A stretch of DNA of 64,000 nt, taken from the IMG/VR virus record IMGVR_UViG_3300025009_000054, positions 64,001 to 128,000 of that record; one strand, written 5' to 3'. Below the pieces are notes generated by a model that ran no database searches, had not been told where the DNA came from, and was given only the letters and a program-made list of their open reading frames with translations. The DNA is from a virus. Position numbers and translations under genes: made by a program. Shown piece by piece: positions 16,647 to 50,827 of the stretch (the first letter of the stretch is position 1; the number at the start of each line of letters is the position of its first letter).

Positions 16647-17900
16647 TTATCTTCCTCCAGGGTTTATTGCTCTTTTGATTCTCATAAGCGAGAACCTGTC
16701 ATATCTTATATCGAGATTATCACGATTAAACCGCATACTCTCGACCTTGGCATTATCACACCAGCCACATTCTATCGTAGACGCAGCATAATTACGACCA
16801 CTACTGTATGTGTTGCCATTAGACATATGACTACATGCTATGATATGTGATGCGAATGCTGGTATATCATCATCGGTTCCAGATGCCTTACATATGTTCT
16901 GCATCATTTTACCCGTATCAACCCCAAGCGACGCTATCACACTATACATTGATTCAATCATGTAGAGAGTTAAATTATACGCTTCGGGATAGATCATTCT
17001 CTCATTTGCAGAATTTGTTAAATCCCGCTCGTGCCATGTTGGGATGTTCTCCATCGCAACAACCACGTATGATCTGACCATCCTAGCGAGGGAACATATA
17101 CGTTCACATAATCCTGGATTTTTACCAGACTTATGTTTCATTGACGACGACCCAGCCGCAGATTCCTTCGACACCTCATATACCTCATCAATTTCCGGAC
17201 GAGCGAGGTTTCTTATCTCTGTTGCAATACGCTCTAGGGTGCTAGCTATAAGTGCTAGCTGACATATATACTTAGCATATACCGATCTATCGACGATCTG
17301 CGACGACGCTGCCGCTGGATATAGTCCCAGTATATAGCACGCTTTCCTCTCGACATCTGGATCGAGTACATTATACGACCCAACTGGTCCAGACATCTTA
17401 CCATAATACTCGTTAGCATTGAGATCATTGATGTGTCTTGTTATATCCCATATCCAGCTAGCCAATTTGCTAGAAAATTTCATTGGTTCTGCCCACTGTC
17501 CATGCGTCCTACCAATAATTATAGCACCAGAATTATCTTTAGCACACTTCTCTATGGCATTTCTAAATTCGACCAGTGAAGACATTATCTGTGTACCACT
17601 ACGCATACACATTAGCGACATCGATGTATCCATAACATCTGATGCCGCTAGTCCATAGTATACTGGAACGCATTCTGGATATTTATCCTCTACCCATGAG
17701 ATGAAACCTATCATTTCATGAACATATTCATTGATAAATGCGTTGATAACTGGTAAGTCACCACCTAATATCTCTGGTATGCATTTTTTGGTAGACAAGC
17801 CATGCGATTTAATTACAGCATTCATAACCTGTGCCCAGGTTTGGTATTTGGATAGATCACTCCAAATACCATTACATTTGGTATCGTATCGGCTAGTCAT
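16647..17900 (-). CDS. purB: adenylosuccinate lyase (divergent)
   Basis: SRY, GRTHGQWAEP, GKMSGPVG, GSSSMKHK..KNP, ENIPTWHERDLTNSANER. Confidence 0.92.
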   Translation of the reverse strand: MTSRYDTKCNGIWSDLSKYQTWAQVMNAVIKSHGLSTKKCIPEILGGDLPVINAFINEYVHEMIGFISWVEDKYPECVPVYYGLAASDVMDTSMSLMCMRSGTQIMSSLVEFRNAIEKCAKDNSGAIIIGRTHGQWAEPMKFSSKLASWIWDITRHINDLNANEYYGKMSGPVGSYNVLDPDVERKACYILGLYPAAASSQIVDRSVYAKYICQLALIASTLERIATEIRNLARPEIDEVYEVSKESAAGSSSMKHKSGKNPGLCERICSLARMVRSYVVVAMENIPTWHERDLTNSANERMIYPEAYNLTLYMIESMYSVIASLGVDTGKMMQNICKASGTDDDIPAFASHIIACSHMSNGNTYSSGRNYAASTIECGWCDNAKVESMRFNRDNLDIRYDRFSLMRIKRAINPGGR

Positions 17901-23434: not shown

Positions 23435-24148
23435 CTAAGCAGATTTGATCATGCGGCCAATGATCATCGGTTGTCCGACTGAAGGTACGACAACTTCCCA
23501 CACATATTCGGCTCCAATAAGATTGAGCTTCTTTACTCCAAACTTGATATTACCGTTCATATCTACTTTTGAATGCTTAGTTCTATGCACATACGACGAA
23601 TCACACTGAGAGTGTGAACCTACGATAGTAACACTATTTTTATAAAACATAGCCCACGCTATCTGTCCAATATCAAATACTTTATTCGTGACCATTACCG
23701 GTATTGTTAATACTCCATCATTACCGGCTACACTATGCCATCCATCATTATGCCTCTTCGTAGTATTTGGTCCTCTACTGCGTCTAGGCTTCTTGGGTGC
23801 TATCGAATTCGGAATGGTCGCTGGTGATGAGCAATACATCGCAAGTCCTAAAGACGGGTTCTCTTCTACTATCATTCCACCTGGATGATCAGCCACACTC
23901 TTGCCAATCGGATGATATACAAGTACCCCAATGTCAGTACCAGACATATTACCCATAGTCTGCAAATAATCTTTGGTCATCTCGCCATTATTCCACATAG
24001 ATATAACAATCGGTCTAACATCACTATGTGGAGCCCATAGCCCATCACCACGTACCTTTATAGTAACGTCGTAGGCGGTAAACACTATTCCGCTTGAAAC
24101 ATAGTCAACTACTGTATCCCTTATTGCAACCTCTAATGATGCGTTCAT
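23435..24148 (-). CDS. hypothetical protein coupled to PARP, possibly DNA-binding
   Basis: Start MNASLE after GGAGGGAG; N-terminal FTAYDVT..VR helical domain; C-terminal DG.LTIP / D.NGNIK strands weakly AbrB-like. Confidence 0.65.
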   Translation of the reverse strand: MNASLEVAIRDTVVDYVSSGIVFTAYDVTIKVRGDGLWAPHSDVRPIVISMWNNGEMTKDYLQTMGNMSGTDIGVLVYHPIGKSVADHPGGMIVEENPSLGLAMYCSSPATIPNSIAPKKPRRSRGPNTTKRHNDGWHSVAGNDGVLTIPVMVTNKVFDIGQIAWAMFYKNSVTIVGSHSQCDSSYVHRTKHSKVDMNGNIKFGVKKLNLIGAEYVWEVVVPSVGQPMIIGRMIKSA

Positions 24149-24149
24149 A

Positions 24150-25421
24150 TTATCTCCCTCCATCTGTGAACTCAATCAGGTATTTTGGATTTATCTGATC
24201 AGTTCTATACACAATCCACTCATTGTTCATTACTCCAGACTTATTTGCTTTCGCAAAAGTGGAGTCATGCCCACTCTTTGGTAGATTCTCGCCATAGTTA
24301 TTTGGTACGTAATATTTGCCCATTGCCACATCACAAAGGAACATATAGCATGAGCTACTTCTAGTACCAGACCAATACCCATCTGAGTAATTCAACGCTT
24401 TGGTTGATTGGTCTGATGTATATATGCCATTGCCAAACATACGCCCAGTACAATATGGAGCATTACTTGGTGGGATAATAAAACCTTTTTGCATAATACT
24501 TAATAGATTTCCAGACCTAGTACCATGCCATCCATCCCATATATTAGGTAGATTTGCTCCATAATTGGCAAAAGCATTCGACATGGATGCTATCTCAACC
24601 TTAAATACCTTATGTGGACGAAGTCTAGAGCTTGAATGCATACTTTGTTGGGTAGATACATAGAGCTTTGTTATACGATCGATAACACTCTTGTCAGTAA
24701 CTAAACTTAATGATACCTCAAATAATTTTGGCTCTTCATTAGGTTCATTACCACTAGATACTACCATCTGAACAGATGACTCAAGAGAATCTAAAATACT
24801 ATTTTGCTTTTGAATAGCATCAATATTTGGATATAGGTACTTAAGATTGGGTTTCCTCATACCTATATTCTGTGGGATAAGTTGTAGGTACTCGTTAACA
24901 GAATCTATGAACGAAGGTGATTCATAATCATTGACTATCACATATTTACTTATACTATCAAGTAATAATCTGGCACATGAAATAGCCTCTGCCGTAACTA
25001 CTCCAAGCGGTGTAGAATATGTGCCACGGCTTTCATCGTACTGTATTGTGGTATTGGAGAGGATGTTATGTCGATTTACACTGACAAGATACGAAACCAA
25101 ATCTCTGGTTTCGTTATTATCTGTTTGTATCTGTCCTGTTGCCACTTGCGCCAGTCTTCCTGACGTAACTGTTTTACCGCTCTCCGTAGAGGTACCCCGT
25201 ATAGTTTGCGTCGCCTTGTAACCATGGGATCCCTTCTCAATGACCTTTTGGTCATAGAAACCTTTGCCATGGCCAATGACTTTTCTTTGGCCACTATATC
25301 CGACACGGCCCCAGTGAGTTTCTACTGCACCGTCGTCATATAAATAAATAGACCAAAACTTATTATTGTTTTCACTAACATCTGCCTTATTAAAATGACG
25401 CTCTTCCACTATATTTGCCAT
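24150..25421 (-). CDS. poly(ADP-ribose) polymerase-like protein: WGR + helical regulatory + catalytic domains
   Basis: NNNKFW..HWGRVG (WGR); TPLG...LIPQNIGMRKP (PARP_reg); WHGT, GRMFGNGIY, KALNY, NNEWIVY (H-Y-E triad). Confidence 0.94.
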   Translation of the reverse strand: MANIVEERHFNKADVSENNNKFWSIYLYDDGAVETHWGRVGYSGQRKVIGHGKGFYDQKVIEKGSHGYKATQTIRGTSTESGKTVTSGRLAQVATGQIQTDNNETRDLVSYLVSVNRHNILSNTTIQYDESRGTYSTPLGVVTAEAISCARLLLDSISKYVIVNDYESPSFIDSVNEYLQLIPQNIGMRKPNLKYLYPNIDAIQKQNSILDSLESSVQMVVSSGNEPNEEPKLFEVSLSLVTDKSVIDRITKLYVSTQQSMHSSSRLRPHKVFKVEIASMSNAFANYGANLPNIWDGWHGTRSGNLLSIMQKGFIIPPSNAPYCTGRMFGNGIYTSDQSTKALNYSDGYWSGTRSSSCYMFLCDVAMGKYYVPNNYGENLPKSGHDSTFAKANKSGVMNNEWIVYRTDQINPKYLIEFTDGGR

Positions 25422-25430
25422 ACCGATAAC

Positions 25431-25503
25431 TCCGTTTCCGCCCCTACAGGGCTACATGAGTTGTACATCGAACAAGCTAATTGCGTGATCACTATAAAAC
25501 GGA
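25431..25503 (-). promoter_or_regulatory. structured 5' leader of the PARP gene overlapping its SD
   Basis: Coding-strand TCCGTTTT pairs with GAAACGGA (overlaps GGAG); two internal stems (AGCTTGT/ACAACT, GCCC/GGGC). Confidence 0.4.
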
Positions 25504-25518
25504 TATGCCCAAAGAAGT

Positions 25519-25908
25519 CTATGTCAAGCTTGACTCTAAAGCATGCTTATCATCCTGAGCAGATGTAGAGCCAGCTCCCATACCACCCTTGTCTGGATCA
25601 CTAGCCCAATCACGCTTAAATACCTCTGTTGATACTTCGGTAATCGCGTCCTGCAAATCTATGCCCTCGGCACTACAATACCCAGCTAGAAATACTATAA
25701 CATCAGCAACAGCGTCTCTAGCCTTTGATAGATATGTCTCTCTTGTCATGCCACGTATACCCTGAACACTCTTTAGATGCGCGTGTGCTAATTCACCTAT
25801 TTCCTCTACGGCTCCAAGTAGACAGTGATACGGCACTTGCTCACCAAAATTCCTATCAGACCACTCCTTTTGATTTCTCTGTAATTCTCGAAATGTTAGC
25901 TCACTCAC
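25519..25908 (-). CDS. MazG-like NTP pyrophosphohydrolase
   Basis: GAVEEIGELAH...DAVADVIVFL (ExxE...DxxD). Confidence 0.85.
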   Translation of the reverse strand: MSELTFRELQRNQKEWSDRNFGEQVPYHCLLGAVEEIGELAHAHLKSVQGIRGMTRETYLSKARDAVADVIVFLAGYCSAEGIDLQDAITEVSTEVFKRDWASDPDKGGMGAGSTSAQDDKHALESSLT

Positions 25909-28841
25909 AGTGATAGTACCTCATACCCTTCATCAGTCGCGTATTTTACCCTATTTCTATGATGCTTCGATAGATACCTACAATTCATATCGGCAATGTC
26001 AAGAACAAGACCATTCTTCTTATCAGGTCTATTTGGATCTTTCCTCATGACACGACCAACACGCTGTATATACATGCCACGCTCAGCACCATCAACCACC
26101 ACAATTAAGTCTAAACTAGGAACATCAACACCCTCATTAATGAGTGTAGTTATCATGCATTTAAGCTCACGGCTCTTAAGTTTAGTAAATGCACGTTTTC
26201 TATCGCCTTTACTATCACTACTAATAAGCAAGATAGCACCAGGTATTAGGGGTAGTAAATTTTTACCATGCTCCACTTTACTAATAGCTATAGCTACAGT
26301 AGATCCACTATCCATAGCACGTATTACACTATCGGCTATCATTTGGTTACGTTCTGCATTGTCTATAATGAGTTGTCTATAGACATCGTTATATGATATG
26401 TCAATTTCCTTACGACATTTTGGACAATAACCTTTGTGGCCTACGAACGATGCTGAGAATTCGATTACATTACCACATTTGCCCTTACCGACCTTAGTTG
26501 GGCATATAACCTTAATAATATTTTTAGAATGATCAAATTTCTCGCACCTGATAATGGGCGGGACCAATATTCCAGCATCTATAATCTCTTTTGGACGTGC
26601 CATATACAGCATCCTCGGAAGAGCCGCTTCAATAAGCAGGTCTGTGTCATCGTCACGGTAAGGCGTCGCTGAGTTATGTACTAATACCCCATTAGCCACA
26701 AACGATGGATGCCCATCCATTTCTAAATCATATACATAGTCGATACTATCAAATACTGATAGTCCAGTATCCTTGATTTGCACCTCATTAAATGAGTAGT
26801 TACTATGGCAATATTTTGATCTTGTACCGCTACGACCATTATTCTTACCATTCATAGCATTAGTAGACCATGTTACTATATATGACGGATGTTTACCGAT
26901 AATTTTCCTACCATACACAGTTCCACCATCACGTGGTCCGGATTTTGGTGATGTAGATCCCGAAACACCTATACTACGAAGCAAACACAGAATATCCATA
27001 ACTAACTTATAGGATGTCGTGGTGTAATAACACCTTTTGCGATTTCTCGATCTTTCTGCACTATGACCATCAGAATCTATTAATCCATTTAATAATTGAC
27101 GTCTAGACTGATATGACCATGAAAAAAGACACTCACCTGGTATATGCTTCGTTAAATGGTTTACCTTACCAAAATACGATTGGAATATATCGACTAATAT
27201 AGCACTATTTATCTCTACCTGGGTAGATCCATCTCGTTTATCAAGTGTTAGATTACAATGTAGCCATGACATACTATTCACTTTACTGATAAATGCATCA
27301 ACATCTTCACTACATATCGAAAAACACAATTGATTTGTATCTATCCAACCATCTCCAATAAAATAGCCCATAATATATGCTAAATCTACAGTTGGAATGT
27401 ACGCATCCACCCACCCACCATGTGAATTACCAGAATAGATCCTAGTTGGTTTTGGCAATATATTTTTATGTTGTTTATATATACTTAACGACAAATAGTG
27501 TCCATACTGACCACGATTCCTAAACCTAAACCATGCTTTTGGGTCCAAATTTAATGCTCGACGATTAGTACTCGTCAAATCAACACATACTAGGGTTCCT
27601 GAGTCATCAGCTCTATCTGACGCGTCGATCATATCAATACCACGATCACACCAATCTATTCCATCATCTCCAATTAATACATCACCAATAATCAAATCCT
27701 GGGCTGATGCTTCAGACACTATAACCTGATGTTTGGTATCTCCAATATTTCTACCACCAGGTACTATCTTATATATGGAATGATCATTCGTCGTATTTAG
27801 CCAAGTTCCGTATACACGTACACCTGGTAGCTCACTAGATGCCGGTACATGCCTAATAAAATTTTTGATAGGTTTCCATGCAAACTTATCACCAGTCCAA
27901 CCACGTGACATTATGCCCTGACCAGATACATCTATAATCTCATATCCATCAGATGTTATATGTGATGCCATGTCAGTACAAGAAGCAATATAGAAAGCAT
28001 CTGCGATTTTACAATGTTGTCCAGTCCCAAAAGGACCACCAATAAGCTCTACATACGATTCGCTATGAACTGATAAACCTACGCGTACGTCGGCCTCGGA
28101 AAAGGCTCCGAAGGTATCGAAAACTGTCTGGGCTCGTAGGTGGTGCATTTCATCGCAAAACACGACTCTCGTGTTTTTAATCATATTCTTAAGGTCATTT
28201 GTCCGATAATCGTCCTTTGAACTCATGATCTTACCAATAGTCTGCAATGTCGCAACAGTCACCACATTAGGTTCAAATACAGTATCACCAACTATTCCAA
28301 TACCGGTACTCGGTAAATACTCCTTAAATGATTCATATGTCTGATATAAGAGCTCTATATTATGTACCAGAAACACTGATGGAACACCCATTTCAGCTAT
28401 GGCGTGAGCGGCAAGTAGTGTCTTACCAGACCCAGTAGGGAGACATATCACGCCACATTTCTTCTCAAGTATTGCTTGACACGCGGCCTTCTGATAATCT
28501 CTAGGATCTCTATTGGGTGTCCAATCGAACTTATCCTCATACCCCTTCTGAATACGATGGTCAATAATATCAATCTTAATATCTGGTCTAGCCTTAGATA
28601 TAGCCCATTTTACTCTATCGACAAGTCCTGTTGGAAATTCATATGTGTCAGAGTTAAAAACTGATACAATGCCCGACATATTCTTTTGTGCCCATTTAGA
28701 CCTATGTTTAAACCCAGGATCCTTATATGAGCACACTGAGCACGCATGGCCTACAGCATTTATTGGGTCGTAATCGCACTCTTCAATAATTATTTTACTA
28801 TACGCAGACCTTACATCTATTTTCATTACTGGTTTCCCCAT
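25905..28841 (-). CDS. UvsW-like SF2 helicase containing an intein
   Basis: PRDYQ, LPTGSGKT, DEMHH, GL|SATP, EGVDVP, QRVGRVMR. Confidence 0.93.
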   Translation of the reverse strand: MGKPVMKIDVRSAYSKIIIEECDYDPINAVGHACSVCSYKDPGFKHRSKWAQKNMSGIVSVFNSDTYEFPTGLVDRVKWAISKARPDIKIDIIDHRIQKGYEDKFDWTPNRDPRDYQKAACQAILEKKCGVICLPTGSGKTLLAAHAIAEMGVPSVFLVHNIELLYQTYESFKEYLPSTGIGIVGDTVFEPNVVTVATLQTIGKIMSSKDDYRTNDLKNMIKNTRVVFCDEMHHLRAQTVFDTFGAFSEADVRVGLSVHSESYVELIGGPFGTGQHCKIADAFYIASCTDMASHITSDGYEIIDVSGQGIMSRGWTGDKFAWKPIKNFIRHVPASSELPGVRVYGTWLNTTNDHSIYKIVPGGRNIGDTKHQVIVSEASAQDLIIGDVLIGDDGIDWCDRGIDMIDASDRADDSGTLVCVDLTSTNRRALNLDPKAWFRFRNRGQYGHYLSLSIYKQHKNILPKPTRIYSGNSHGGWVDAYIPTVDLAYIMGYFIGDGWIDTNQLCFSICSEDVDAFISKVNSMSWLHCNLTLDKRDGSTQVEINSAILVDIFQSYFGKVNHLTKHIPGECLFSWSYQSRRQLLNGLIDSDGHSAERSRNRKRCYYTTTSYKLVMDILCLLRSIGVSGSTSPKSGPRDGGTVYGRKIIGKHPSYIVTWSTNAMNGKNNGRSGTRSKYCHSNYSFNEVQIKDTGLSVFDSIDYVYDLEMDGHPSFVANGVLVHNSATPYRDDDTDLLIEAALPRMLYMARPKEIIDAGILVPPIIRCEKFDHSKNIIKVICPTKVGKGKCGNVIEFSASFVGHKGYCPKCRKEIDISYNDVYRQLIIDNAERNQMIADSVIRAMDSGSTVAIAISKVEHGKNLLPLIPGAILLISSDSKGDRKRAFTKLKSRELKCMITTLINEGVDVPSLDLIVVVDGAERGMYIQRVGRVMRKDPNRPDKKNGLVLDIADMNCRYLSKHHRNRVKYATDEGYEVLSL
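26673..28073 (-). mobile_element. 467-aa intein with LAGLIDADG homing endonuclease in helicase motif III
   Basis: Starts SVHSESYVEL, block B TTNDHS, LAYIMGYFIGDG and LLNGLIDSDG, ends YVYDLE..FVANGVLVHN followed by Ser(+1). Confidence 0.92.
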
Positions 28842-34093: not shown

Positions 34094-35296
34094 TCAGTAC
34101 TTGCTTTGATAGGCCGGTTCGAAGTCCCTCTTATATCCAGGCTTCGATGATGATTCAGGCGATAGTATGCCGGATTTGAATGCAAACTCTCTAAGTTTAC
34201 CTGGATGCATAGTGATTATATGTTCTGGGCGTGGACCCGTACTTAGCCACCCAATAGAATCAAATAAATCATATTCTGCAGCGAATTTGGCCACCCATTC
34301 TTTACTAACCTGGGACAGACCTTCCCAAGCATTTTTACCATAGTCAATCGCGGCGATATAATCTATGAACGTGACCATTATCGATCCTGGTCGATTAATA
34401 GCAAGGGCTTTTCTAAACAATTTAGGACTAATCTCACCAACTCTTCTAACTCTCTTCGTAACAGTCGTCATTTCAATAACAGGCTTAGACGATCCACTAC
34501 GAGTCTGAATTTCTTCCCACGTGAGTTCCTGAACATTCTCGTCTTCATACCCAAATGGTCCACTGTTGCCAGCAACCCTAATTGGATATGTTCTCATAAC
34601 ACCATATATACTACGTACGGACATTGGTGATAGTCCAGCTTCTGCAAGCCAGTTTGCTGCGTTTGTATCTCTGGACGTAGTTTTTGGATATAAACCATGG
34701 TACATCGATAAAGCCATTCCCTGAGTTCCTTCGAGCATAACGGGAAATCCATTGTTTACCATATTATTGAGTATCATGCATGTATCGCCGATGTAGGGTT
34801 TAAGATAACTCACATCTTTGGCTAAGGTCACATCACCCTGCCTTTTAATCCTATCAATGAGAGCCGCACCACACCCTTCACGTGTACTACCAATAGCTTC
34901 GAACAGATCTTTACTACCATCTTTTCCATGCTCAGCATCAATATGTTTCTGCTCAATCAGAATGGCATTTGGATCAATGACGAGTCTACCATCATCCCAT
35001 ACCTTTTCTTCCTTCAGCCAACCGATTTCCCGATCTAGTACGGTTGGAATAATCATAGCACCAGCACCAATTACGAGCTGTGCTTTTGGTGCCGCTATAG
35101 ACCCGCATGGAATGGTTTGAAAAGCAAGCTTCTTCTTTCCATCTTTACTATAGACATAATGGCCAGCATTCGGCGATCCTGTACGCACTAAAGCACCATT
35201 ATTATATTGCCCAGCAATATGTTCACACAATTTTCCTTTTGCTTCAGAACCAAATGCGAGTCCGACGACGATATCTACGCACCTATTAGTGATCAT
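34094..35296 (-). CDS. purZ: PurZ/PurZ0-type N6-succino-2-amino-dAMP synthetase (PurA paralog)
   Basis: FGSEAKGK (Ser in place of the PurA catalytic Asp of GDEGKG), PNAGH, EGTQG, YPKTTSRD, RTYPIRVAGNSGP, TTVTKRVRRVG, TFID. Confidence 0.85.
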   Translation of the reverse strand: MITNRCVDIVVGLAFGSEAKGKLCEHIAGQYNNGALVRTGSPNAGHYVYSKDGKKKLAFQTIPCGSIAAPKAQLVIGAGAMIIPTVLDREIGWLKEEKVWDDGRLVIDPNAILIEQKHIDAEHGKDGSKDLFEAIGSTREGCGAALIDRIKRQGDVTLAKDVSYLKPYIGDTCMILNNMVNNGFPVMLEGTQGMALSMYHGLYPKTTSRDTNAANWLAEAGLSPMSVRSIYGVMRTYPIRVAGNSGPFGYEDENVQELTWEEIQTRSGSSKPVIEMTTVTKRVRRVGEISPKLFRKALAINRPGSIMVTFIDYIAAIDYGKNAWEGLSQVSKEWVAKFAAEYDLFDSIGWLSTGPRPEHIITMHPGKLREFAFKSGILSPESSSKPGYKRDFEPAYQSKY

Positions 35297-40497: not shown

Positions 40498-41850
40498 TTA
40501 ACTAATTATCATAATAAGTCCTACCACTACACTTGTAACTGTAGACGAACTATCAACAATAAATTCAAGCACATCCCCTGCCGATACAGCGATTGATAAC
40601 CCAGTTGCTTCATTTTTTTGTGCAGTAGACAATGTAGGTTTACCACTTGCAAATAATGTGGCATTTGTCGGATAACCAGCATACGTCGAAGCGTGAACAT
40701 CCACAACTATACTTCCGCTTTGATCTGCAAATATAGTCCAACCAGTAATAGTACCAGCATAAGGTATACTAATAAAACCCTTACTACCTGTGGTAATTGC
40801 TACACCACCGCCATTAATAACATATGGAACACCTCTAATTTGCATATTATCAGTCGGCGTGTAGGTTGTTCCGTCAGTACCAGCGACGCCTTGTATTCCC
40901 TGTTCTCCTTGTATACCTTGAATACCCTGTTCTCCTTGAATACCCTGTTCTCCTTGTGGTCCTTGTGGTGCTGAGAATTCTAACCAATTAGTAGGGTCTT
41001 CTTTAGGTGCATTGATATCTTCGTTTATTATATTCTGACAAAAGTATATACTATTAATGCCAGTAAAGTCAGATGATTCCGCCAATACATAATCACCAAC
41101 AACATATGAATCACCGTATACCCATTCACCTTTATATATAAGCGATTCTCCATCTACGCCTTGTATGCCCTGCTCACCTTGTATACCCTGTATACCAGTA
41201 TCGCCTTTCGCACCTCTCGGTGCGCTAAATTCTAACCAATTTGTAGAGTCTTCTTTCGGTGCAACAATATCGTTAATTAAAATATCTTGGCAAAAGTATA
41301 TTGAATTATAACCAAGAGCGGTAGAAGATTCGGCAATTACATAATCACCAGAATCATAGTCACTGCCTGATAGCCATTCACCTTTATATATGAGTGATTG
41401 CCCATCTGCTCCAGCCGCTCCAGCCGCTCCAGGTTCACCAGGTACTCCAGCCGCTCCAGGCTCCCCAGGTACTCCAGGTACTCCAGCCGCTCCTTGTGAC
41501 AATGGTACCAAGTAAATAGAATCACCAATAATTAGTGTGTTACCTGTTGGTATAGAGATATTATTACAAATACAATATCTATCACTTCCATTCGCAACAG
41601 CAACATACACTACGACAGAATCAGTATCTAGATTAACAATTTTTACATCCTTAATCATTCTAACTGTACCAGCCACAGGTGTTGTTGCTGCAACCACTTC
41701 TGTTGCATTATTCAATGTGCCATAAATACTGCCAGGTGTAAACCCACTTGCATTATTATCACCATATGTTGTTGAAAATTGGGGTTGATTTTCTGACACA
41801 TTACCACCCAATTTTATCACTAATGTATTGCCATGAATTAAATTAATCAA
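40498..41850 (-). CDS. collagen-like fibre protein with duplicated ~60-aa module
   Basis: G-X-Y runs alternate with two copies of SLIYKGEW..G..Y..GDYV.AESS...NSIYFCQ...NWLEFSAP. Confidence 0.8.
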   Translation of the reverse strand: MINLIHGNTLVIKLGGNVSENQPQFSTTYGDNNASGFTPGSIYGTLNNATEVVAATTPVAGTVRMIKDVKIVNLDTDSVVVYVAVANGSDRYCICNNISIPTGNTLIIGDSIYLVPLSQGAAGVPGVPGEPGAAGVPGEPGAAGAAGADGQSLIYKGEWLSGSDYDSGDYVIAESSTALGYNSIYFCQDILINDIVAPKEDSTNWLEFSAPRGAKGDTGIQGIQGEQGIQGVDGESLIYKGEWVYGDSYVVGDYVLAESSDFTGINSIYFCQNIINEDINAPKEDPTNWLEFSAPQGPQGEQGIQGEQGIQGIQGEQGIQGVAGTDGTTYTPTDNMQIRGVPYVINGGGVAITTGSKGFISIPYAGTITGWTIFADQSGSIVVDVHASTYAGYPTNATLFASGKPTLSTAQKNEATGLSIAVSAGDVLEFIVDSSSTVTSVVVGLIMIIS

Positions 41851-41880
41851 TGTATTATCCTAATCTAATTTTCTATATGG

Positions 41881-43725
41881 TTATAAAAACCACGCAAGAG
41901 CAGATATGCCATTTGTAATGCCCTGTGTACCTTGATACCCTTGATATCCTTGTACCCCTTGATATCCTTGCACACCACGCAATCCCTGATAGCCCTGATT
42001 ACCTTGTACACCCTGGTAGCCCTGATTACCTTGTACACCCTGGTAGCCCTGATTACCAGTTTCTCCCTGCTGACCAATAACACCTTGGTCACCCTGTACA
42101 CCTTGGTCACCCTGTACACCTTGGGGGCCATTAGGCTCACCCTGCGGACCCTGTATTGAATCACCCTGAAATCCCTGATCACCTTGTGTTCCCTGATCAC
42201 CTTGTGTTCCCTGAAATCCCTGATCACCTTGTGTGCCCTGAAATCCCTGATCACCTTGTAGTCCAACATACCCCTGGTCGCCTTGTGCACCCTGGTCGCC
42301 TTGTGCACCCTGGTCGCCTTGATCACCTTGTGCACCTTGGGGGCCATTAGGCTCACCCTGCGGACCCTGAGGTCCAATCCCACCAAAGTCTCCTTGTACG
42401 CCCTGGCTACCTTGTACGCCCTGGCTACCTTGGTATCCATTATTACCTTGTACACCCTGTACACCTTGATTGCCCTGTACACCTTGATCACCCTGAAATC
42501 CCTGAAATCCCTGATCACCCTGAAATCCCTGATCACCCTGAAATCCCTGAGGACCACCAGGATCACCTTGTAAACCCTGAGGACCACCAGGATCACCTTG
42601 TAAACCCTGAGGACCTTGAGGACCATCGATGCCTTGATACCCCTGGTCACCATTTATACCTTGGGGTCCACTTGTCCCTTGTGGACCCTGGACACCATCG
42701 TTTCCTTGTGGACCCTGGACACCATCATTTCCTTGAACTCCAATACTACCCTGTACACCCTGTGGACCACCGTACGCACCCTGGTATCCCTGAAGTCCAC
42801 GTACACCCTGGTATCCCTGTGCACCTTGATATCCCTGGTACCCTTGGTATCCACGCACACCTTGTGTACCCTGTGTACCTTGTGTACCCTGTGTACCTTG
42901 TTCGCCTTGTCCACCACGAAGTCCTATGCCAGTATCACCCTGAGCACCCTGAGGACCTTGTATTCCCTGTGGAGTGGCATTTTTAAATAATTTCAGTGTA
43001 CCATCATATACAAGTGATTGACCATTTGTAGGCGTGGTCACCTGAATTCCAGCTAACGTAGTGATATTGATAGACTTGGGAACAATCTTGTCAGTTGTAA
43101 TAGTATTAGCAGCAATCTTAGATCCAGTAACTGTCAAATCTGATAGATGCCATCCATATACTGAACCAGGTGGATGGTCAATAATCGATTTTCGTCTATG
43201 TGATACCATACCACGCGTATAATTAATATTGGGAACTGAATCCTCAACACTATTAAACGCTACCATATTTGATGTCGCTACAGCTTTTGCTAGTAATACA
43301 CACCCAGGCACAACATTGCCGGTATTATTTGTATATCCTAACCAATCCCCATTAGTAGTAGAAGATTGTGTAGAACTCTCAACTATCTTGGCATATAGAT
43401 ACGTAGTGGTACTTAATGGTATTTCCCATCCGTCTCTTTCTACAGAATTATATATGTATACACCATCAGCTATAGCATCTAGCGATTGTATACGTATTTT
43501 CATCGCGGTACCATCACTATTGCCACCAAAATATAAATTACCCATGGCGATGATAGCACTGGAGCTAGATGTAAAATTACACATACTCCTTATCGATAGA
43601 GATAAGTGCGAGTCTATAATTTTCGATATTCTTTGTTCTTCAGACTCACTACTAAGGTCACCATTAGACCAAATTGGAATTTTTAGTTTTAATGTTTTAT
43701 TACTATATGACATTATGGACCACAC
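41881..43725 (-). CDS. collagen-like tail fibre protein
   Basis: About 350 aa of G-X-Q triplets after an N-terminal attachment region. Confidence 0.85.
41921..42970. repeat. 9-bp-period coding repeat (G-X-Q), with duplicated blocks
   Basis: Recurrent ccttg/ccctg; 36-bp block duplicated at ~42118 and ~42334. Confidence 0.9.
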
Positions 43726-44140: not shown

Positions 44141-46552
44141 CTAATATATGGGATCATACGAATATATGGGGTCAACCCATTCGCCATCAATACTGTGCGT
44201 ATATTCTTTAGATTCAGCATTAGATAAATCGTACGATATGCTAATGATGCGGAATCTAGGATCACTAATTACACTTCCTATACCATCATATGCACCATTA
44301 GTAATTGGTGTATCTATGCGGGCAATGTAATACGGAAAGTACACACCGCCAATTATGGAGAGTCCAGTCATAGGTCTTGGCCTAGTGGCACGCGAGAAGA
44401 TATTGTGTGCTATATTACTAGTAATCTCTGGTGATATAAATTGCACATTTTTCATTATGTGCCACCTATACCACGGCATATAATTAGATACTGATGCATC
44501 CGATAAATTCGCCTTCACTATAGACATAATAGGAGTGATGTGCTGGAAATCCAATCCTTGTACCATTATTGCATTTTTAACAAAACTGGTTGGATATTTT
44601 ACCGTTATTGATTTAAGTAGCTCAGTATAATCAGTAACGGCATCCTCAGTTAGTGTACAATCGTACGCATTTGAATTTGTATTATCCCTATATAGCGGAT
44701 TAGTATCATCCTCAGGTGACTGATATATGAGATTGCCCCAATTATTTATAAACATCCATGACATGCTCCATGTGCGGATTTGTTGCATGCAATCATAAAT
44801 AGGAACTGAGTCTTCAAATTTGTACATTGGGTTATCAGTCCACGACATACTCGGAAGTATTTTATGATTACATTTCCCAATAGAGCATAATGAGTCAACT
44901 ACGCCGTAGTGATCGCGTATCGTAGCATACTGACCAGTTACCTGGTCTTGCCATGCTAATAAGCCTGGTGCTAAATCTGATGGATCATCTTGGCACCCAG
45001 CATGATATCCAAGTTGCAATATAGCCCACAACTCGCATGTTCCATCGAGTGGTGGTATAGCTATAGCTGGTGTGTCACGCAGTATCGCCGCAGCATCAAG
45101 TAATTGCCAAGAAACATCGGCAGTAGAGTCATTATGTGTATATTCTGGCTCCCAAATCCAACCAGTATAGATACGCACAGTGTCATATCCTGCATATTCG
45201 CCGGTATCTTCATCAACAAAATGCCATCCAGCGTCTACATATATACGCTTTGCACCAGATAGTCCAGTAAATTTACCATCAGGGTTTTGATTACTAAATG
45301 TTATTGTACCATTATATCCTTCGGTATCAGCCCTAATATTTAGACTTGTAACATCAGCGCCACTAAGTGATGGAAGCTCTGGCCATTCTATATCAATAAA
45401 TTCAGGACCTTTATGTAGGTTTACTCCCCAAAACACCGGACTATATATACCAGATGTTGACATGCCCATATCCACTTGATAGTATACACAGGTTTTATCT
45501 CCAACCATCGCATTTGTACCACTAGCTGAAAAAGTACCATCGCAATTAGATGAGTACACACCCCAGTCTGCATTCATATCAAAGTCTGATTGAGAAAAGT
45601 CATGTGGTATATATGGTGATAAGATTTGTCCACCAGTAACAAATCTTATAGGTAATAGTGCTATCATGGCGTCAGTGTTATACAGTTCAATTATCAATTT
45701 ATATGGTACGCTACTATTGATAGCTGGATAATCTAATCCGTCCTCAATAGCGGGGTACATATTATTTGTATTCCAATTATAATCAGTGCACTTATGGAAC
45801 CACGTCGATTCCCTACTATGATCAAGACCATTTGATATCTCTATAGTATCCCATAGCGTACGAACCACTAATGTGTCGGTAATACCAACATTAAACATAT
45901 CGGATGGACCAACACTGACTTGATCGTATATACCAGTATCTCCATTAAACTGGAATAATGACGGTGCCTTTGTTTGGTATAATCCAATGCACCATTCGGA
46001 TACTCCTCCGAAATATACATACACTACTGTGTTATCGGGATCTACACCACGCTGTGGCACAAATCTTTTAATCGACAATGCAAACCATTCACCCTCTTGA
46101 ATAGTATAATCTGTGGATATATACCTATATCTATTACTGGATAGGGCATCATCATTAGTATCAGACGATATTATATGAGCGAATTGTGCACCATCACCAA
46201 TAACACTTTTCCACGTACCATCACCATCCCATATAACAGTATCATCAGCATCAGCATTTGATGGTAAATCTATACCGCTAAATGTGTTGTCATATCCGTG
46301 TATATACGATCTGAGATGCATACCACCAGTAATCGGATCATACTCAAAATCGCGTGTCATGTCTTTGTCGTTACAACTATCAAAGTATGCATTGTCATAC
46401 GACACAAAGAAGCCACCATCATCGCGACCTATAGATAGGCCATTCCATATGGATCCGGCAGCATCGTGCCTACTCATACCATTTCGGATGCATGCCTGTG
46501 CTGGATTAGCCCAACCGACATCAACGCATGGAAGAGAACGTACTATACTCAT
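44141..46552 (-). CDS. putative tail tip/hub protein
   Basis: 803 aa, acidic and beta-rich; MFINNWGNLIY hub-like segment; position after tape measure. Confidence 0.6.
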   Translation of the reverse strand: MSIVRSLPCVDVGWANPAQACIRNGMSRHDAAGSIWNGLSIGRDDGGFFVSYDNAYFDSCNDKDMTRDFEYDPITGGMHLRSYIHGYDNTFSGIDLPSNADADDTVIWDGDGTWKSVIGDGAQFAHIISSDTNDDALSSNRYRYISTDYTIQEGEWFALSIKRFVPQRGVDPDNTVVYVYFGGVSEWCIGLYQTKAPSLFQFNGDTGIYDQVSVGPSDMFNVGITDTLVVRTLWDTIEISNGLDHSRESTWFHKCTDYNWNTNNMYPAIEDGLDYPAINSSVPYKLIIELYNTDAMIALLPIRFVTGGQILSPYIPHDFSQSDFDMNADWGVYSSNCDGTFSASGTNAMVGDKTCVYYQVDMGMSTSGIYSPVFWGVNLHKGPEFIDIEWPELPSLSGADVTSLNIRADTEGYNGTITFSNQNPDGKFTGLSGAKRIYVDAGWHFVDEDTGEYAGYDTVRIYTGWIWEPEYTHNDSTADVSWQLLDAAAILRDTPAIAIPPLDGTCELWAILQLGYHAGCQDDPSDLAPGLLAWQDQVTGQYATIRDHYGVVDSLCSIGKCNHKILPSMSWTDNPMYKFEDSVPIYDCMQQIRTWSMSWMFINNWGNLIYQSPEDDTNPLYRDNTNSNAYDCTLTEDAVTDYTELLKSITVKYPTSFVKNAIMVQGLDFQHITPIMSIVKANLSDASVSNYMPWYRWHIMKNVQFISPEITSNIAHNIFSRATRPRPMTGLSIIGGVYFPYYIARIDTPITNGAYDGIGSVISDPRFRIISISYDLSNAESKEYTHSIDGEWVDPIYSYDPIY

Positions 46553-46555
46553 ATC

Positions 46556-49500
46556 TTATGTACTCCATGAACTACCATTAGTGGAAATGCTAACGTGTGG
46601 AATTCCTTTATCATCATAGTAGGCAACAGATATTGTATTTGATGGTAATATCTGTATAGAAGGTGAGTGCATCATGGTTGGAGTGTGAACTTTACTATTA
46701 ATATTTACACCATATTCACTACGTGGCATATCCACGTACCATACCGTATTATCACTTCTAATAACATCAGCAATATGTATCGATCCACTATTAGTATCGA
46801 CGGCAATATCAGGTGCAAGATCTGTTGTGCCAATTAGTACAGGTGTACTCCACGTAACACCACAGTCAGTACTGATAATTTTGTATAAATCGTGTGGAGC
46901 TTTATTTACAACTTTTGCATATACAGCAATTATGACATTTTCTTTAGAATTATACCATAGTGATGGTTTATGTTTAGGTATATCACCACTCACTAAGGTT
47001 AGGTTATCAATACCATTGGCCATATTGTGATCAGAAATAGAAATGGTGCCCCAATACAGTTGATAAGTACTCTTACTGTATAGCATTAGCCCAATCTTAG
47101 CTCGATCAGGTATATATACTGCACTAACACTATCGTACCCTTCGCACAATACCTTCTTATTAGTATTACGCCAAGTTGTTATGTTGTGGGAAGTATTATA
47201 TGAATATATCACTTCTCTGGTATCATAGTCTACGTATATTAGGCATTTACCGTTAGACCTATCAATCATAATATTTGGGGATATATACCTACTAGTATCA
47301 GCTATGGTTGTATCTTCCTCTATTTTATCATGATCATCAATAATACATACAGATAGTCCGTCATCTTGATTGATGTAATATAACTCATTACGTCCATTAA
47401 TCCTAACATGATCAATAGACATTCCTGACAATCTAGGTCTAAAGTTAATAACCATCCTAGTATTGTGCCTATCGAAGTGAGCTAATGGTTGTACAATTCT
47501 ACCATTACAGCTAATGCCATATGCTGCTGGTATCCTATCAAATTCATACTGCCCAGAGTTAAACGTTTCAGTATTACCAACACTACTACTATAATGTACT
47601 CCTGAGTAGTATGTGAGGGATTCACTAGTGTCTGGATTATATAGTCCCATATTCGGATCGTATAGAAAATCGTCAAATGCATCATCTGGGTACACTGGAA
47701 TAAAGAAGTTACTCCAATTATCTACTGATATACCACTGATACTCTCAACAAACAATCCGCTACTAAATGATGGTGTAAGTACGCTTCCATCATCCATGTT
47801 TACGCCATTGTCGTATGCGTGCCCATATATCTTACCCTGTGCAACGCGTGTGAAGTAGAACTTTAATACCCCACCTGTAGATATGCCATCACCATATAAT
47901 GCATGGGCAGTTGCCGATGAGTATTTTGGTCTTACATACACACTCATACTTGTATCTATGGAAGCATCATGTGGCCCCATGCACATTTCAACCGGTGCAA
48001 TATAGTTTGCGTTATCATATGAGATTGGATAACTATCATAGTAACTACCTAAAGCTTCTTCAGGATACGATCCATTTGATGGGTTAATATCAAATGACGA
48101 TATTGGTAGTGTTGTTATGTTTTCAATACTACGTATATCATAATCATCAAAGGTTACTATGCCACTATATGGTATATAATATGAAACGGGATCATAATTA
48201 ATGCCATCGCCATAGTCATTTCGATCAAGATATGTAATCGCGTACACACCAGATGTATCGGGTATATATGTATGAAAATCCCACCAATTTCTACCATCAA
48301 CACAGACTGATATTGTAGGCATTGGCACCACGTCTCTACTACCGATAATATATTTATTAATATCAAAATCATCAAATTCTGTGGATATCGGATATGCCAC
48401 ACCGCTGACATCCACAGGTGCATTATTGTAATTATCGTTGTAATGGTATACACCGGACGAATCGATATTACTACAACCAGCAATGACGACATTATTATTC
48501 GACACGGTACTACCAGTACCATTAACGTACTTACTAATATCACCAGTAGATTTAGCCACCATTGACTTAAAAGTATATTCCATGCCTGGGATGAGCCCAT
48601 CGAAGAATATGCCGCTTATATGTCCAATACCCCACGACCATCGTAGGTAATCACCAGGCCAATTCTGATCATGCAGATTATTTGATACTGGAGCATCTTC
48701 CACATATCTATTTAAAGGTCTAATTTGCTCAATCAATGATGTTATATAGTCAATATCATCTGGAGGATTTGATGGCATATACGTATCTATATTAATACCA
48801 CTACCACTAAATTCTAGATACCATGCCTTTGGTGTGTCTCCAGTACATAGTACTGGAGCATGCGCTTCATATATTGTACCACCACCATCAACTGGAAAAT
48901 TATACACATCGCCATTTATCGATGAGTAATATGTATAATATGGGTGATATTCTGTTGAATTAACCCATTTCATTTTCTCTTTATTATCAACTAGTGGTGG
49001 CCATTTATATTTTAATCCAACATCAGTAGTTGATAACACACATGACGCCCCATCAGTAGCATCAACATCTAACTGCCACCATCTATGTGGTGGCATATAT
49101 GTGGGGTCGAAAGTTCTATGTATTGACCCATGTGGACCAACATCATGCACATACAGACCACTACTTGTATAATCAACTACACAGTCAACACCTGACCATC
49201 CAGTTGAGAAATCTTCGATTGTAATATCACTAGTATCAACTTCGAGGTCGTACATGTGGAATGATTTAGGATACGATAGAAGTACGTCCTTATTTGACGG
49301 CATGTTATCAAATTGTTCAGGATTTAGAAGTTTTAATCCGTACGTATGTTTCCCTAGTGGTTCATAAACACCATTTTTTAACACACACCACCCTGGCTTA
49401 TGTTCCCAACTATAGTCAACTTGATCAACATCGTTAGGGAATACACCATCATATCTGTATGTATCATCATCTTCACGATATACTAAGAATCCTGGTGTTA

Positions 49501-50827
49501 CTGATAACGTACGACCCTGATAATTTGGTCTTTTATCTACGTGTATTTGGAAATATGGTTCCGGAGTAAACACTGGAGATATATTACCACGCCAGTGTTT
49601 ACTATCAAAAATATCAATGTAATGTGGTGTAGCTTCCGGTGTACTACCATCTATATTCTTAAGGTCACCAATATATTGATACGACGGTGGTGGGGTTACT
49701 GGCCATTTAAGATTTATACCAATTCCATTATGTTCAATATTGGTCCTTACAAAACGACTGTATTGGTACCAACCAGTACCCGTTTGCGTTCCATTTATCT
49801 TGTCCCACGATATATATTGGCGTGGTATATCCTGAGCATATGCTTCACAAGAAATGACACCATCAATGACTCTAGCATTACTATCCATGCCAGCCATTTC
49901 GTATGTCTTACCAGCAGTATTCCATGAAACATTAGATGATGAGAAGTTAGCCGTAGCACTACTACCATAATTTCCGAGGTAATCATCAATATCTATGGTT
50001 ATGGTCTCACCACCGATTATAAATCTATATAAATGTGTTTCAGCAAAATCACCGATTGGTATATAATCTAGATTTGGTGGAGGGTCACCAATTGGAAGAC
50101 CTGGACCATAAAAAGTTGGACCATCTCCATCGCTATTGACTTTATGAACATATGGTTCTCTATATATACCATTTACGTAGAAACAGAACGACACTCCTTG
50201 ACCACAATCTACCCCTATATCTACTTTTGGTGTTAAAATACTAGTAACATCCACAAATGGATTTACACTGGATCCACCGATATCCTTGAGCTTTGGCCCA
50301 CTCATAGTTAATATATATTTAGTAACACCACTTCCAAATGCAACATGTATCGGAATACCAATCGTAGCGTTGCTATTATATTCAGACCAGCTAATATAAT
50401 TTATAACTAGATCTTGCCAGTCTTTTAGTGCTGTCCAATATGAACCATAACCATCAGTAATCTCTGCTATATATTTATTAGGAAATGATATTGTACATGA
50501 TTCATATATAGTGCCTCCACCACCACTACCGTATAATGCCCTAGTATCCTCATCTAATCTTTTTTTATCATGATCACTTAGTCCATTGTAATATAAGTAA
50601 TGTTCATAACTAGTATGTATGCTCAGGTAGTTTGTATTTATTACCGAGCTATATAATGAGTTTAGTAGGTTACAATTAAGGTATCCCCTACCACCAATAC
50701 CACGCGTTACCCTACATACTATACCATGGCCAGCATCATAATAAGTTATTGTTTTATTTGGTGAGTAACTAGTATTAAATTCATAGCTGAACATAGAGCC
50801 TGTGCGCCCAGTTTCAAAATACGGCAT
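46556..50827 (-). CDS. large tail protein with C-terminal Asp-box beta-propeller
   Basis: 1423 aa directly after the tape measure; STDCGVTWS and STNGSSWS. Confidence 0.65.
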   Translation of the reverse strand: MPYFETGRTGSMFSYEFNTSYSPNKTITYYDAGHGIVCRVTRGIGGRGYLNCNLLNSLYSSVINTNYLSIHTSYEHYLYYNGLSDHDKKRLDEDTRALYGSGGGGTIYESCTISFPNKYIAEITDGYGSYWTALKDWQDLVINYISWSEYNSNATIGIPIHVAFGSGVTKYILTMSGPKLKDIGGSSVNPFVDVTSILTPKVDIGVDCGQGVSFCFYVNGIYREPYVHKVNSDGDGPTFYGPGLPIGDPPPNLDYIPIGDFAETHLYRFIIGGETITIDIDDYLGNYGSSATANFSSSNVSWNTAGKTYEMAGMDSNARVIDGVISCEAYAQDIPRQYISWDKINGTQTGTGWYQYSRFVRTNIEHNGIGINLKWPVTPPPSYQYIGDLKNIDGSTPEATPHYIDIFDSKHWRGNISPVFTPEPYFQIHVDKRPNYQGRTLSVTPGFLVYREDDDTYRYDGVFPNDVDQVDYSWEHKPGWCVLKNGVYEPLGKHTYGLKLLNPEQFDNMPSNKDVLLSYPKSFHMYDLEVDTSDITIEDFSTGWSGVDCVVDYTSSGLYVHDVGPHGSIHRTFDPTYMPPHRWWQLDVDATDGASCVLSTTDVGLKYKWPPLVDNKEKMKWVNSTEYHPYYTYYSSINGDVYNFPVDGGGTIYEAHAPVLCTGDTPKAWYLEFSGSGINIDTYMPSNPPDDIDYITSLIEQIRPLNRYVEDAPVSNNLHDQNWPGDYLRWSWGIGHISGIFFDGLIPGMEYTFKSMVAKSTGDISKYVNGTGSTVSNNNVVIAGCSNIDSSGVYHYNDNYNNAPVDVSGVAYPISTEFDDFDINKYIIGSRDVVPMPTISVCVDGRNWWDFHTYIPDTSGVYAITYLDRNDYGDGINYDPVSYYIPYSGIVTFDDYDIRSIENITTLPISSFDINPSNGSYPEEALGSYYDSYPISYDNANYIAPVEMCMGPHDASIDTSMSVYVRPKYSSATAHALYGDGISTGGVLKFYFTRVAQGKIYGHAYDNGVNMDDGSVLTPSFSSGLFVESISGISVDNWSNFFIPVYPDDAFDDFLYDPNMGLYNPDTSESLTYYSGVHYSSSVGNTETFNSGQYEFDRIPAAYGISCNGRIVQPLAHFDRHNTRMVINFRPRLSGMSIDHVRINGRNELYYINQDDGLSVCIIDDHDKIEEDTTIADTSRYISPNIMIDRSNGKCLIYVDYDTREVIYSYNTSHNITTWRNTNKKVLCEGYDSVSAVYIPDRAKIGLMLYSKSTYQLYWGTISISDHNMANGIDNLTLVSGDIPKHKPSLWYNSKENVIIAVYAKVVNKAPHDLYKIISTDCGVTWSTPVLIGTTDLAPDIAVDTNSGSIHIADVIRSDNTVWYVDMPRSEYGVNINSKVHTPTMMHSPSIQILPSNTISVAYYDDKGIPHVSISTNGSSWST

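Follow-up and report, generated by a model that had tools for sequence, protein, structure and literature searches.

A phage WGR-helical-catalytic PARP gene and its conserved linkage to a gene for a putative DNA-binding partner

Whether a PARP encoded by a large phage acts alone or together with the product of the gene that directly follows it is the question raised by a 64,000-nucleotide stretch of viral DNA (the window), which corresponds to positions 64001–128000 of the IMG/VR virus record IMGVR_UViG_3300025009_000054 (142,704 bp; CheckV completeness 82%) and derives from an uncultured phage. All coordinates given below are window positions. The initial annotation of the window described the gene at 24150–25421 as encoding a PARP2/3-like enzyme with a WGR domain, a helical domain and an intact H-Y-E triad, treated this layout by implication as a novelty, offered counter-defence, repair or NAD drain as possible roles, and suggested that the adjoining downstream open reading frame (ORF) may encode a partner. 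The analysis reported here shows that the PARP gene and this partner gene belong together as a module, kept by large phages as well as by some bacteria.

The gene at 24150–25421 encodes a genuine clade-1-type PARP-family ADP-ribosyltransferase with the triad H299-Y334-E401, and the domain assignment of the initial annotation is upheld by Pfam searches, by alignment to sequences from the Protein Data Bank (PDB) and by fold comparison. The Pfam catalytic family PF00644 matches residues 248–418 with 92.8 bits (cut-off 26.7; 96.1 bits in the genome search), and the WGR family PF05406 matches residues 8–48 with 34 bits (cut-off 22); the regulatory family PARP_reg (PF02877) reaches 22.7 bits over residues 135–214, slightly under its cut-off of 26.8, a threshold that most of the relatives exceed. 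The full length of the protein matches phrog_23333 in PHROG (191 bits). A phmmer search against the PDB aligned residues 134–386 with the helical and catalytic fragment of PARP1 (E 4e-23), pairing residues 134–250 with its helical domain (HD), and residues 7–369 with the WGR, helical and catalytic (WGR-HD-CAT) region of PARP2. The motifs WHGTRS, GIYTSD, LNYS and NNEWIVY pair with the PARP1 motifs that contain H862, Y896, Y907 and E988, and H299, Y334, Y345 and E401 are invariant in 30 relatives. G300 and K341 are also kept in the window protein, and among the same relatives G38 and R39 of the WGR motif are invariant and W37 occurs in at least 90%. The AlphaFold model, built on 30 relatives with a predicted local distance difference test (pLDDT) score of 83.7, has strands at residues 4–49 and a helix at residues 52–65 in the WGR region, followed by an all-helical stretch at residues 88–223 that overlays the HD of PARP1. 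This model matches the WGR-HD-CAT portion of PARP1 bound to a DNA break (4dqy_C and 4opx_C; TM score 0.70, Foldseek E ~1e-25) and also DNA-bound PARP2 (7aeo and 6x0l; Foldseek E ~1e-25). The WGR-HD-CAT core of human PARP1, PARP2 and PARP3 superposes on the window protein, which has equivalents of H862, Y896, Y907 and E988, whereas the zinc fingers, the BRCT domain and the basic N-terminal tail of the human enzymes are absent from it.

The enzyme taken alone is a new member of a phage group that has already been catalogued, so that the implied novelty does not hold. Full-length relatives with 22–36% identity over 94–97% of the length were found by tblastn in 18 phage records, including those of Klebsiella phages 05F01, vB_KpM_FBKp34 and KP13-16, Xanthomonas phages XacN1 and Xoo-sp13, Stenotrophomonas phages CM1 and RAS14, and Cellulophaga phage phi4:1, and the annotation of the FBKp34 gene names the WGR, regulatory and catalytic domains. 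Phages of this kind have been discussed repeatedly: Cellulophaga phage phi4:1 was counted among the viral PARPs in 2014 (PMC4245714); the XacN1 protein BBA65562.1 was cited in 2021, when phage PARPs were suggested to act like other phage ADP-ribosyltransferases (ARTs) while adding chains (PMC7824862); PARTs were listed among the commonest viral ART families in 2022 (PMC9503650); and a PARP was described in NAD-jumbo phages in 2024 (PMC11662467). In a word-indexed search, the family comprised 1384 proteins at E<=1e-3, most of them of about 430 aa and the best with 55% identity. Compared by description, the enzymes of Herpetosiphon aurantiacus (HaPARP) and Clostridioides difficile CD160 (CdPARP), which are about 420–450 aa in length, share the order WGR, PARP_reg and PARP_cat and the H-Y-E triad with the window PARP. 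Both automodify with poly(ADP-ribose) (PAR) only when activated DNA is supplied (PMC5966428; PMC8120803), and no conserved DNA-binding partner of either is described in these two papers.

The gene that follows the PARP gene is tightly coupled to it: the start codon of the partner (first base at 24148) lies one base past the PARP stop codon TAA (24150–24152), and homologues of the partner align from the same methionine. The 237-aa product has no match in Pfam, PHROG, PADLOC or NCBIfam. A word-based homologue search recovered six proteins only, whereas an exhaustive search with a hidden Markov model (HMM) profile yielded 2279 cluster representatives at E<=1e-3, 1357 of them at E<=1e-10, which are nearly all 190–260 aa long and matched end to end. 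The record contains a single copy of the gene, and no paper describing the family was found in a literature search.

Linkage between the two genes was assessed in both directions. For the forward test, 40 viral loci were fetched with the PARP alignment (a single-protein query returned none). The 237-aa partner gave weak tblastn matches right after PARP in seven of the fetched viral loci, and when 2479 ORFs were searched with an iterated HMM, the search converged on 19 of them, distributed over 18 loci; nearly all follow PARP on its strand, either directly or with one gene in between. A profile built from 42 partner-family members placed a partner gene downstream of PARP, in the same orientation, at 18 of the 35 viral loci that belong to the close PARP clade and at about 13 of 41 loci taken from assembled prokaryote genomes (Armatimonadota, Blastocatellia, Omnitrophota and Planctomycetota). 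When the ORFs immediately downstream of PARP were clustered, the partner family formed one cluster of 17, and every other cluster had three or fewer members. The reverse test started from 80 metagenome loci fetched with FTA[FY]DVTK, a motif that belongs to the partner only. Where at least 3 kb of upstream sequence was available (25 loci), a PARP gene lay upstream on the same strand in 16, at gaps of 18–2660 nt, and downstream in one more; where 1–3 kb was available (22 loci), it lay upstream on the same strand in 13. These reverse counts carry some ascertainment bias: PARP-linked loci had supplied three of the eight seeds, and among the loci fetched there is one duplicate of L006. The only phage-database record with the partner, LR756511.1 (595 kb), has a PARP gene 1.6 kb off. 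The suggestion that the downstream ORF may be a partner is thus strongly supported by a linkage that is conserved in both directions (18/35 viral; 16/25 reverse).

The association is not universal among phages. The cultured phage PARPs (XacN1, FBKp34 and others) have the same three domains and different downstream genes, encoding a radical SAM protein, a 155-aa hypothetical protein or a vWA protein, and no member of the partner family was found in XacN1, Xoo-sp13, 05F01, FBKp34, KP13-16, CM1, RAS14 or phi4:1. At two viral loci the slot right after PARP is occupied by a homing endonuclease gene, of the GIY-YIG type in L022 and the LAGLIDADG type in L028, and in L022 the partner gene has been shifted about 14 kb downstream (L087). 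The other genes found after PARP (homing endonucleases, an ABC transporter, WD40, DUF1501 and acyl-carrier-like proteins) form no pattern, nor do those that precede partner genes lacking a PARP (metallophosphoesterase, SprT-like protein and deformylase). A prediction of the complex between PARP and partner, run without controls, scored 0.00 and speaks neither for nor against binding. The coordinates of both genes, their domains and the neighbouring features are listed in Table 1.

Table 1. Features of the PARP-partner locus and its surroundings, in window coordinates.
Feature	Position	Strand	Basis or remark
PARP gene, 423 aa, ATG start, WGR-helical-catalytic	24150..25421	-	ORF; Pfam; phrog_23333; fold match
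WGR domain, ~residues 4-68, W37-G38-R39	25218..25412	-	Pfam, model, conservation
Helical regulatory (HD-like) domain, ~residues 88-223	24753..25160	-	PARP_reg below cut-off, phmmer, model
ADP-ribosyltransferase catalytic domain, ~residues 236-420	24162..24716	-	Pfam PF00644
Catalytic residues H299; Y334; E401	24525-24527; 24420-24422; 24219-24221	-	Aligned to PARP1 H862/Y896/E988
Partner gene, 237 aa	23435..24148	-	ATG 24146-24148; unnamed family; PARP-linked
Shine-Dalgarno-like GGAGGGAG in last PARP codons	24154..24161	-	5 nt before partner ATG; putative, read from sequence
Predicted N-terminal winged helix of partner, residues 1-90, motif FTA[FY]DVT..R...H	23879..24148	-	AlphaFold2 (AF2), Foldseek, VIA, ESM Atlas
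Linker of partner, residues 91-140, predicted disordered, basic in window copy (PKKPRRSRGPNTTKRH)	23729..23878	-	pLDDT below 50
Predicted C-terminal MraZ/AbrB-like module of partner, residues 141-237	23438..23728	-	Weak Pfam in relatives, VIA, Foldseek, ESM Atlas
MazG-like gene, pyrophosphatase	25519-25908	-	Directly upstream of PARP
Gap between MazG-like gene and PARP, 97 nt	25422-25518	-	No recognised promoter
PurZ-like adenylosuccinate-synthetase relative	34094-35296	-	phrog_1211, 1.5e-67; 9 kb upstream of PARP

Structure prediction suggests that the partner consists of two modules joined by a flexible stretch. The N-terminal domain was modelled by AF2 at a pLDDT of about 90, with helices at residues 3–19, 25–34 and 41–53 and strands at residues 61–68 and 74–80. 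The best Foldseek matches to residues 1–85 were the winged helices of PadR, LmrR and MarR (probability up to 0.99, and 0.97–0.99 for PadR and LmrR; E>0.04), and in VIA-align, with a comparison set of 48,161 chains, winged helices of Zur, Fur and PadR reached middling Z scores of 6–7.2 over residues 1–82; the top rows of both programs for residues 1–82 are nearly all winged helices, and no sequence family matched. For the C-terminal half, the hits are weaker. Single members among 12 of the family matched Pfam AbrB-like (3e-4), MazE_antitoxin (3e-4) and MraZ (0.22), the window copy matching none of these, and one member matched TIGR01439 of NCBIfam at 0.0077; MraZ 1n0e_A was found by VIA over 97 residues (partner residues 136–237) at a middling Z score of 6.5, and Foldseek weakly matched MraZ structures 1n0e and 9qlg to the same half. 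The ESM Atlas model of the partner has PadR and FUR neighbours at residues 1–83 and a MraZ cluster at residues 136–236. The disordered stretch covers residues 96–142 of the model, and the corresponding linker varies from 18 to 69 aa across the family, with a composition of 13.6% T, 11.1% P, 9.8% A and 8.5% S. Taken together, four partly independent looks suggest a winged helix followed by a MraZ-like module, that is, two predicted nucleic-acid-binding modules. MraZ, AbrB and MazE proteins contain two tandem beta-hairpin repeats, and the partner-family consensus D-x-R-G-R...VD...NIR recalls the DXXXR repeats of MraZ; in contrast to MraZ, however, the partner gives sub-threshold or middling matches, has this module fused to a winged helix via a disordered linker, and is not associated with the dcw operon.

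The N- and C-terminal halves need not be joined in one protein, as seen at the viral locus L026, where a 353-aa protein with the C-terminal MraZ-like module only (profile positions 128–207) is encoded 2.5 kb upstream of PARP (L026:8637–9698, plus strand), besides a full partner downstream. In bacteria, and in a few phages, copies of the partner retain the winged helix alone (profile positions ~1–100), and because many copies do so, the winged helix appears to be the element tied to PARP.

The linkage is confined to one part of the PARP phylogeny. A quick IQ-TREE tree of 73 PARPs splits into a clade of 53 rows and one of 20 rows, each with a value of 97 in the Shimodaira-Hasegawa-like approximate likelihood ratio test (SH-aLRT); every partner-linked PARP and the window PARP fall within the former, and none falls within the latter, which comprises sequences from mycobacteria, Paracoccaceae plasmids and some phages. 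The window PARP forms a long terminal branch (1.02) within a group of 25 rows that also includes Armatimonadota, Blastocatellia and Gemmataceae, and its best identity in genome-assembly loci is 53–54%, to Armatimonadota. Some of the cellular PARPs in this group lie on contigs of 1–6 Mb and are hence chromosomal. This placement hints at an Armatimonadota-like host or at gene exchange with Armatimonadota. The nearest cellular PARPs in L054, L058, L066 and L072, on contigs of 0.8–6.1 Mb from metagenome-assembled genomes of Chthonomonadaceae and Blastocatellia, show 47–51% identity and group by family, which suggests that the Armatimonadota PARPs have been inherited vertically after exchange with phages; the Chthonomonadaceae PARPs lack the partner, and the Blastocatellia copy is accompanied by its winged helix only.

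The pair sits in the replication and nucleotide-metabolism block of a large phage that is lytic by appearance. Almost all window genes are carried by the minus strand, and according to Pfam and PHROG the pair is flanked on this strand by the MazG-like gene, an intein-bearing helicase gene and a DNA methyltransferase gene on one side, and by genes for a uracil-DNA glycosylase and a primase-helicase on the other. The PurZ-like gene, together with the MazG-like pyrophosphatase gene, suggests that the phage makes 2-aminoadenine (Z-base) DNA. The helicase is a 978-aa protein of superfamily 2 encoded two genes upstream of PARP (25905–28841, minus strand), and its intein, with a LAGLIDADG homing endonuclease inside, is recognised by the Pfam families LAGLIDADG_3, Intein_splicing and Hom_end between ResIII/DEAD and Helicase_C. 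Farther away, on the same strand, the sole PHROG match of the gene at 16647–17900 is a family of unknown function, and three very large ORFs in succession (44141–54648; 803, 1423 and 1273 aa), none of which is in PHROG at E<=1e-5, are followed by collagen-like tail-fibre genes at 40498–43725. A megablast search with the locus against phage records gave no match.

A scan for sigma-70 promoters and terminators around the pair found sites no commoner than in shuffled sequences. Hexamer-pair counting revealed a two-part motif, TGGCACC-N17-CGTCTACAC(T/C)TTTGGAGG, which is repeated before genes at 12 sites in the whole record; its one coding-strand (minus) regular-expression match within the window, at ~37538, is the nearest upstream copy, and no copy lies in the 97-nt gap preceding PARP. 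This gap holds the heptamers TGGGCAT/GGCATAT and ATAGTGA/TAGTGAT, each of which has 22–35 occurrences on the coding strand over the whole record; as an apparent two-part repeat they were rejected, since they do not recur as a pair.

Genes that would reverse or feed ADP-ribosylation were sought over the entire 142.7-kb record. No match was obtained for Macro, both types of PARG, NADAR or ARH (PF01661, PF05028, PF10021, PF08719 and PF03747), although the search with PF05028 (eukaryotic-type PARG) is uninformative because it matched no control genome either; NAMPT-type, NAD-ligase and Nudix domains likewise had no match in the record, the estimated completeness of which is 82%. The initial observation that the window holds no eraser accordingly extends, by domain searches, to the whole of this 82% complete record. 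The genomes of HaPARP and CdPARP, in contrast, also contain a gene for a PARG of the DUF2263 type, which takes the polymer off. Among related viral records, a bacterial-type PARG was found in 1 of 35, and a Macro domain in 10 of the 14 that are at least 90% complete; a specific link between Macro and PARP was dropped, as this proportion is not clearly above the 56% of jumbo phages reported to have Macro (PMC9503650). Two viral loci show the order PARP-partner-Macro, with the Macro gene 0.3 kb (L013, IMGVR_UViG_3300032116_000001) or 0.9 kb (L031, IMGVR_UViG_3300010344_000283) past the partner, an order that the window phage lacks. A search of PADLOC-DB v2 returned no family at E<=0.01 for PARP, for the partner or for two of three other partner-family members, the remaining member giving chance-level Cas3 rows.

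The reading we favour, to which we would give not quite an even chance, is that the two genes form a module for ADP-ribosylation triggered by DNA breaks or nicks, in which PARP acts with or on a DNA-binding partner. The close spacing, with one base between the PARP stop codon and the next start, would have the two genes expressed together. During replication or after damage, the WGR domain would sense nicks or ends in the DNA, upon which the block imposed by the helical domain on the NAD+ site would be released, and PARP would then ADP-ribosylate itself and nearby DNA-bound proteins; the partner would serve as a targeting subunit, as the main acceptor or as both, with the winged helix as the part tied to PARP. 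Identity, domain layout, intact catalytic residues and conserved linkage are established by the present analysis, whereas the activity of the enzyme, its dependence on DNA, its target and its role are inferred. Because the module lies in a replication and nucleotide-metabolism block, its role is most likely the handling of phage DNA (replication, repair or end protection) rather than general host shut-off.

Several observations weigh against this reading. DNA dependence in vitro is known from two bacterial enzymes, not from phage PARPs or the partner. The loop ahead of the catalytic glutamate appears to be about 26 residues shorter than in PARP1, which makes polymer formation uncertain: between D386, at the end of a strand, and N393 there are six residues, against 32 in PARP1 (a difference of ~26 with the flanking strand paired by eye), and this short form is common to all 30 aligned relatives. 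An H-Y-E triad by itself is no guarantee of polymer formation, as PARP3 and PARP4 illustrate, and the window enzyme may accordingly catalyse either mono- or poly-ADP-ribosylation. The nicotinamide site of PARP1 is formed by G863, S904 and Y907 (PMC5966428), and its glycine and tyrosine are kept as G300 and Y345, whereas the serine, present in 27 of 29 relatives, is replaced by A342, one other relative also having alanine at this position. Being a single pocket residue, A342 does not exclude PARP membership, yet it probably bears on activity. Furthermore, the window protein differs at 14 of 137 conserved positions (at least 90% consensus), and T335 and W402, which adjoin Y334 and E401, replace residues that are conserved in at least 90% of relatives. 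Without an eraser, the modification would be irreversible or host-reversed, or the eraser would have to lie in the missing 18% of the genome. On the side of the partner, the C-terminal half was modelled at a pLDDT of 60–85, falling below 50 past residue 209, and the first motif of the family consensus, D-x-R-G-R, is missing from the window copy. Finally, about a third of sampled partner genes have no adjoining PARP, and many Armatimonadota PARPs occur without the partner or with its winged helix only; PARP can therefore function, or at least persist, alone.

The preferred reading has to be weighed against three others. The enzyme may serve host take-over by modifying host RNA polymerase, translation factors or defence proteins in the manner of Alt, ModA and ModB of T4, possibly with chains instead of single units, while the partner is a phage transcription factor that is co-transcribed by chance. 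This is the role proposed for phage PARPs in the literature (PMC7824862); most jumbo phages have winged helix-turn-helix or AbrB transcription factors of their own, the partner has two DNA-binding-type folds, and a third of its genes lack an adjoining PARP. The T4 enzymes are, by family, NAD+-dependent phage ADP-ribosyltransferases as is the window PARP, but they are R-S-E mono-transferases that have neither a DNA-sensing nor an autoinhibitory domain, and they are partly packaged in the head, whereas the window enzyme has the H-Y-E triad, and the contrast with Alt/Mod enzymes drawn in the initial annotation is borne out by its triad and PARP-type domains. A WGR domain combined with an autoinhibitory helical domain points to activation by DNA lesions and not constitutive modification of the host (PMC5966428), the PARP gene lies away from the head and packaging genes that are the usual site of injected ARTs (PMC9503650), and a two-way linkage limited to one clade is hard to square with chance co-transcription, so that host take-over seems unlikely here.

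Alternatively, foreign or broken DNA may set PARP free as a toxin that consumes NAD+ or ADP-ribosylates its targets, with the AbrB/MazE-type partner as antitoxin and autoregulator, for superinfection exclusion or, in bacteria, abortive infection. The two-gene module is patchy over phages, plasmids and distant bacterial phyla; single partner-family members match Pfam MazE_antitoxin and AbrB-like at 3e-4; and the order of an enzyme gene and a small partner gene recalls DarT-DarG, in which an ADP-ribosyltransferase gene also precedes a smaller second gene, on mobile elements and in phage-host conflict. DarG, however, is an eraser of the macrodomain type, and the partner shows no eraser fold; DarT has neither WGR nor HD, and PARP is often kept without the partner. 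In many genomes (Armatimonadota and some phages), an intact PARP stands beside an absent partner or one reduced to the winged helix, which would be lethal for a true toxin, and it is this winged helix, not the AbrB-like module, that is tied to PARP. As neither protein matches a PADLOC defence model and the pair lies among the replication genes of a large phage that seems to be lytic, we regard a toxin-antitoxin or exclusion system as quite improbable. It is more doubtful still that the window copy has decayed or been repurposed, binding DNA or NAD+ and no longer transferring ADP-ribose efficiently: the substitutions A342, T335 and W402, the 14 departures from the 137-position consensus and the terminal branch of 1.02 would fit such a history, but the H-Y-E triad, Y345, G300 and K341 are kept, the frame is open over its full length, the fold is confidently predicted, and the alanine at position 342 recurs in one other of the 29 aligned relatives. 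We consider this very unlikely.

To the known group of phage PARPs, the present analysis adds the counts of a two-way linkage, its restriction to one clade, a predicted MraZ-like C-terminal module in the partner and the lack of NAD-network companions in the record. The locus is set apart by the pairing of PARP with an unnamed winged-helix/MraZ-like family and by the lack of an eraser or NAD-network gene in an apparently Z-base phage. With a linkage that holds both ways, in large phages and in several bacterial phyla alike, the partner offers a concrete handle for experiments on the role of PARP in these organisms. HPF1 is a precedent for an accessory protein that shapes the targets of PARP; no similarity to HPF1 can be detected in the partner, and a cofactor role is conjecture. 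It is conceivable, though we hold it to be improbable, that the partner is an obligate cofactor or a dedicated DNA-bound acceptor of the PARPs in this clade and that prokaryotes and phages have, in this module, a counterpart to the PARP-HPF1-histone arrangement. If this were true, phages and some bacteria would run a self-contained signalling system for DNA lesions, the logic of which would be older than the eukaryotic one.

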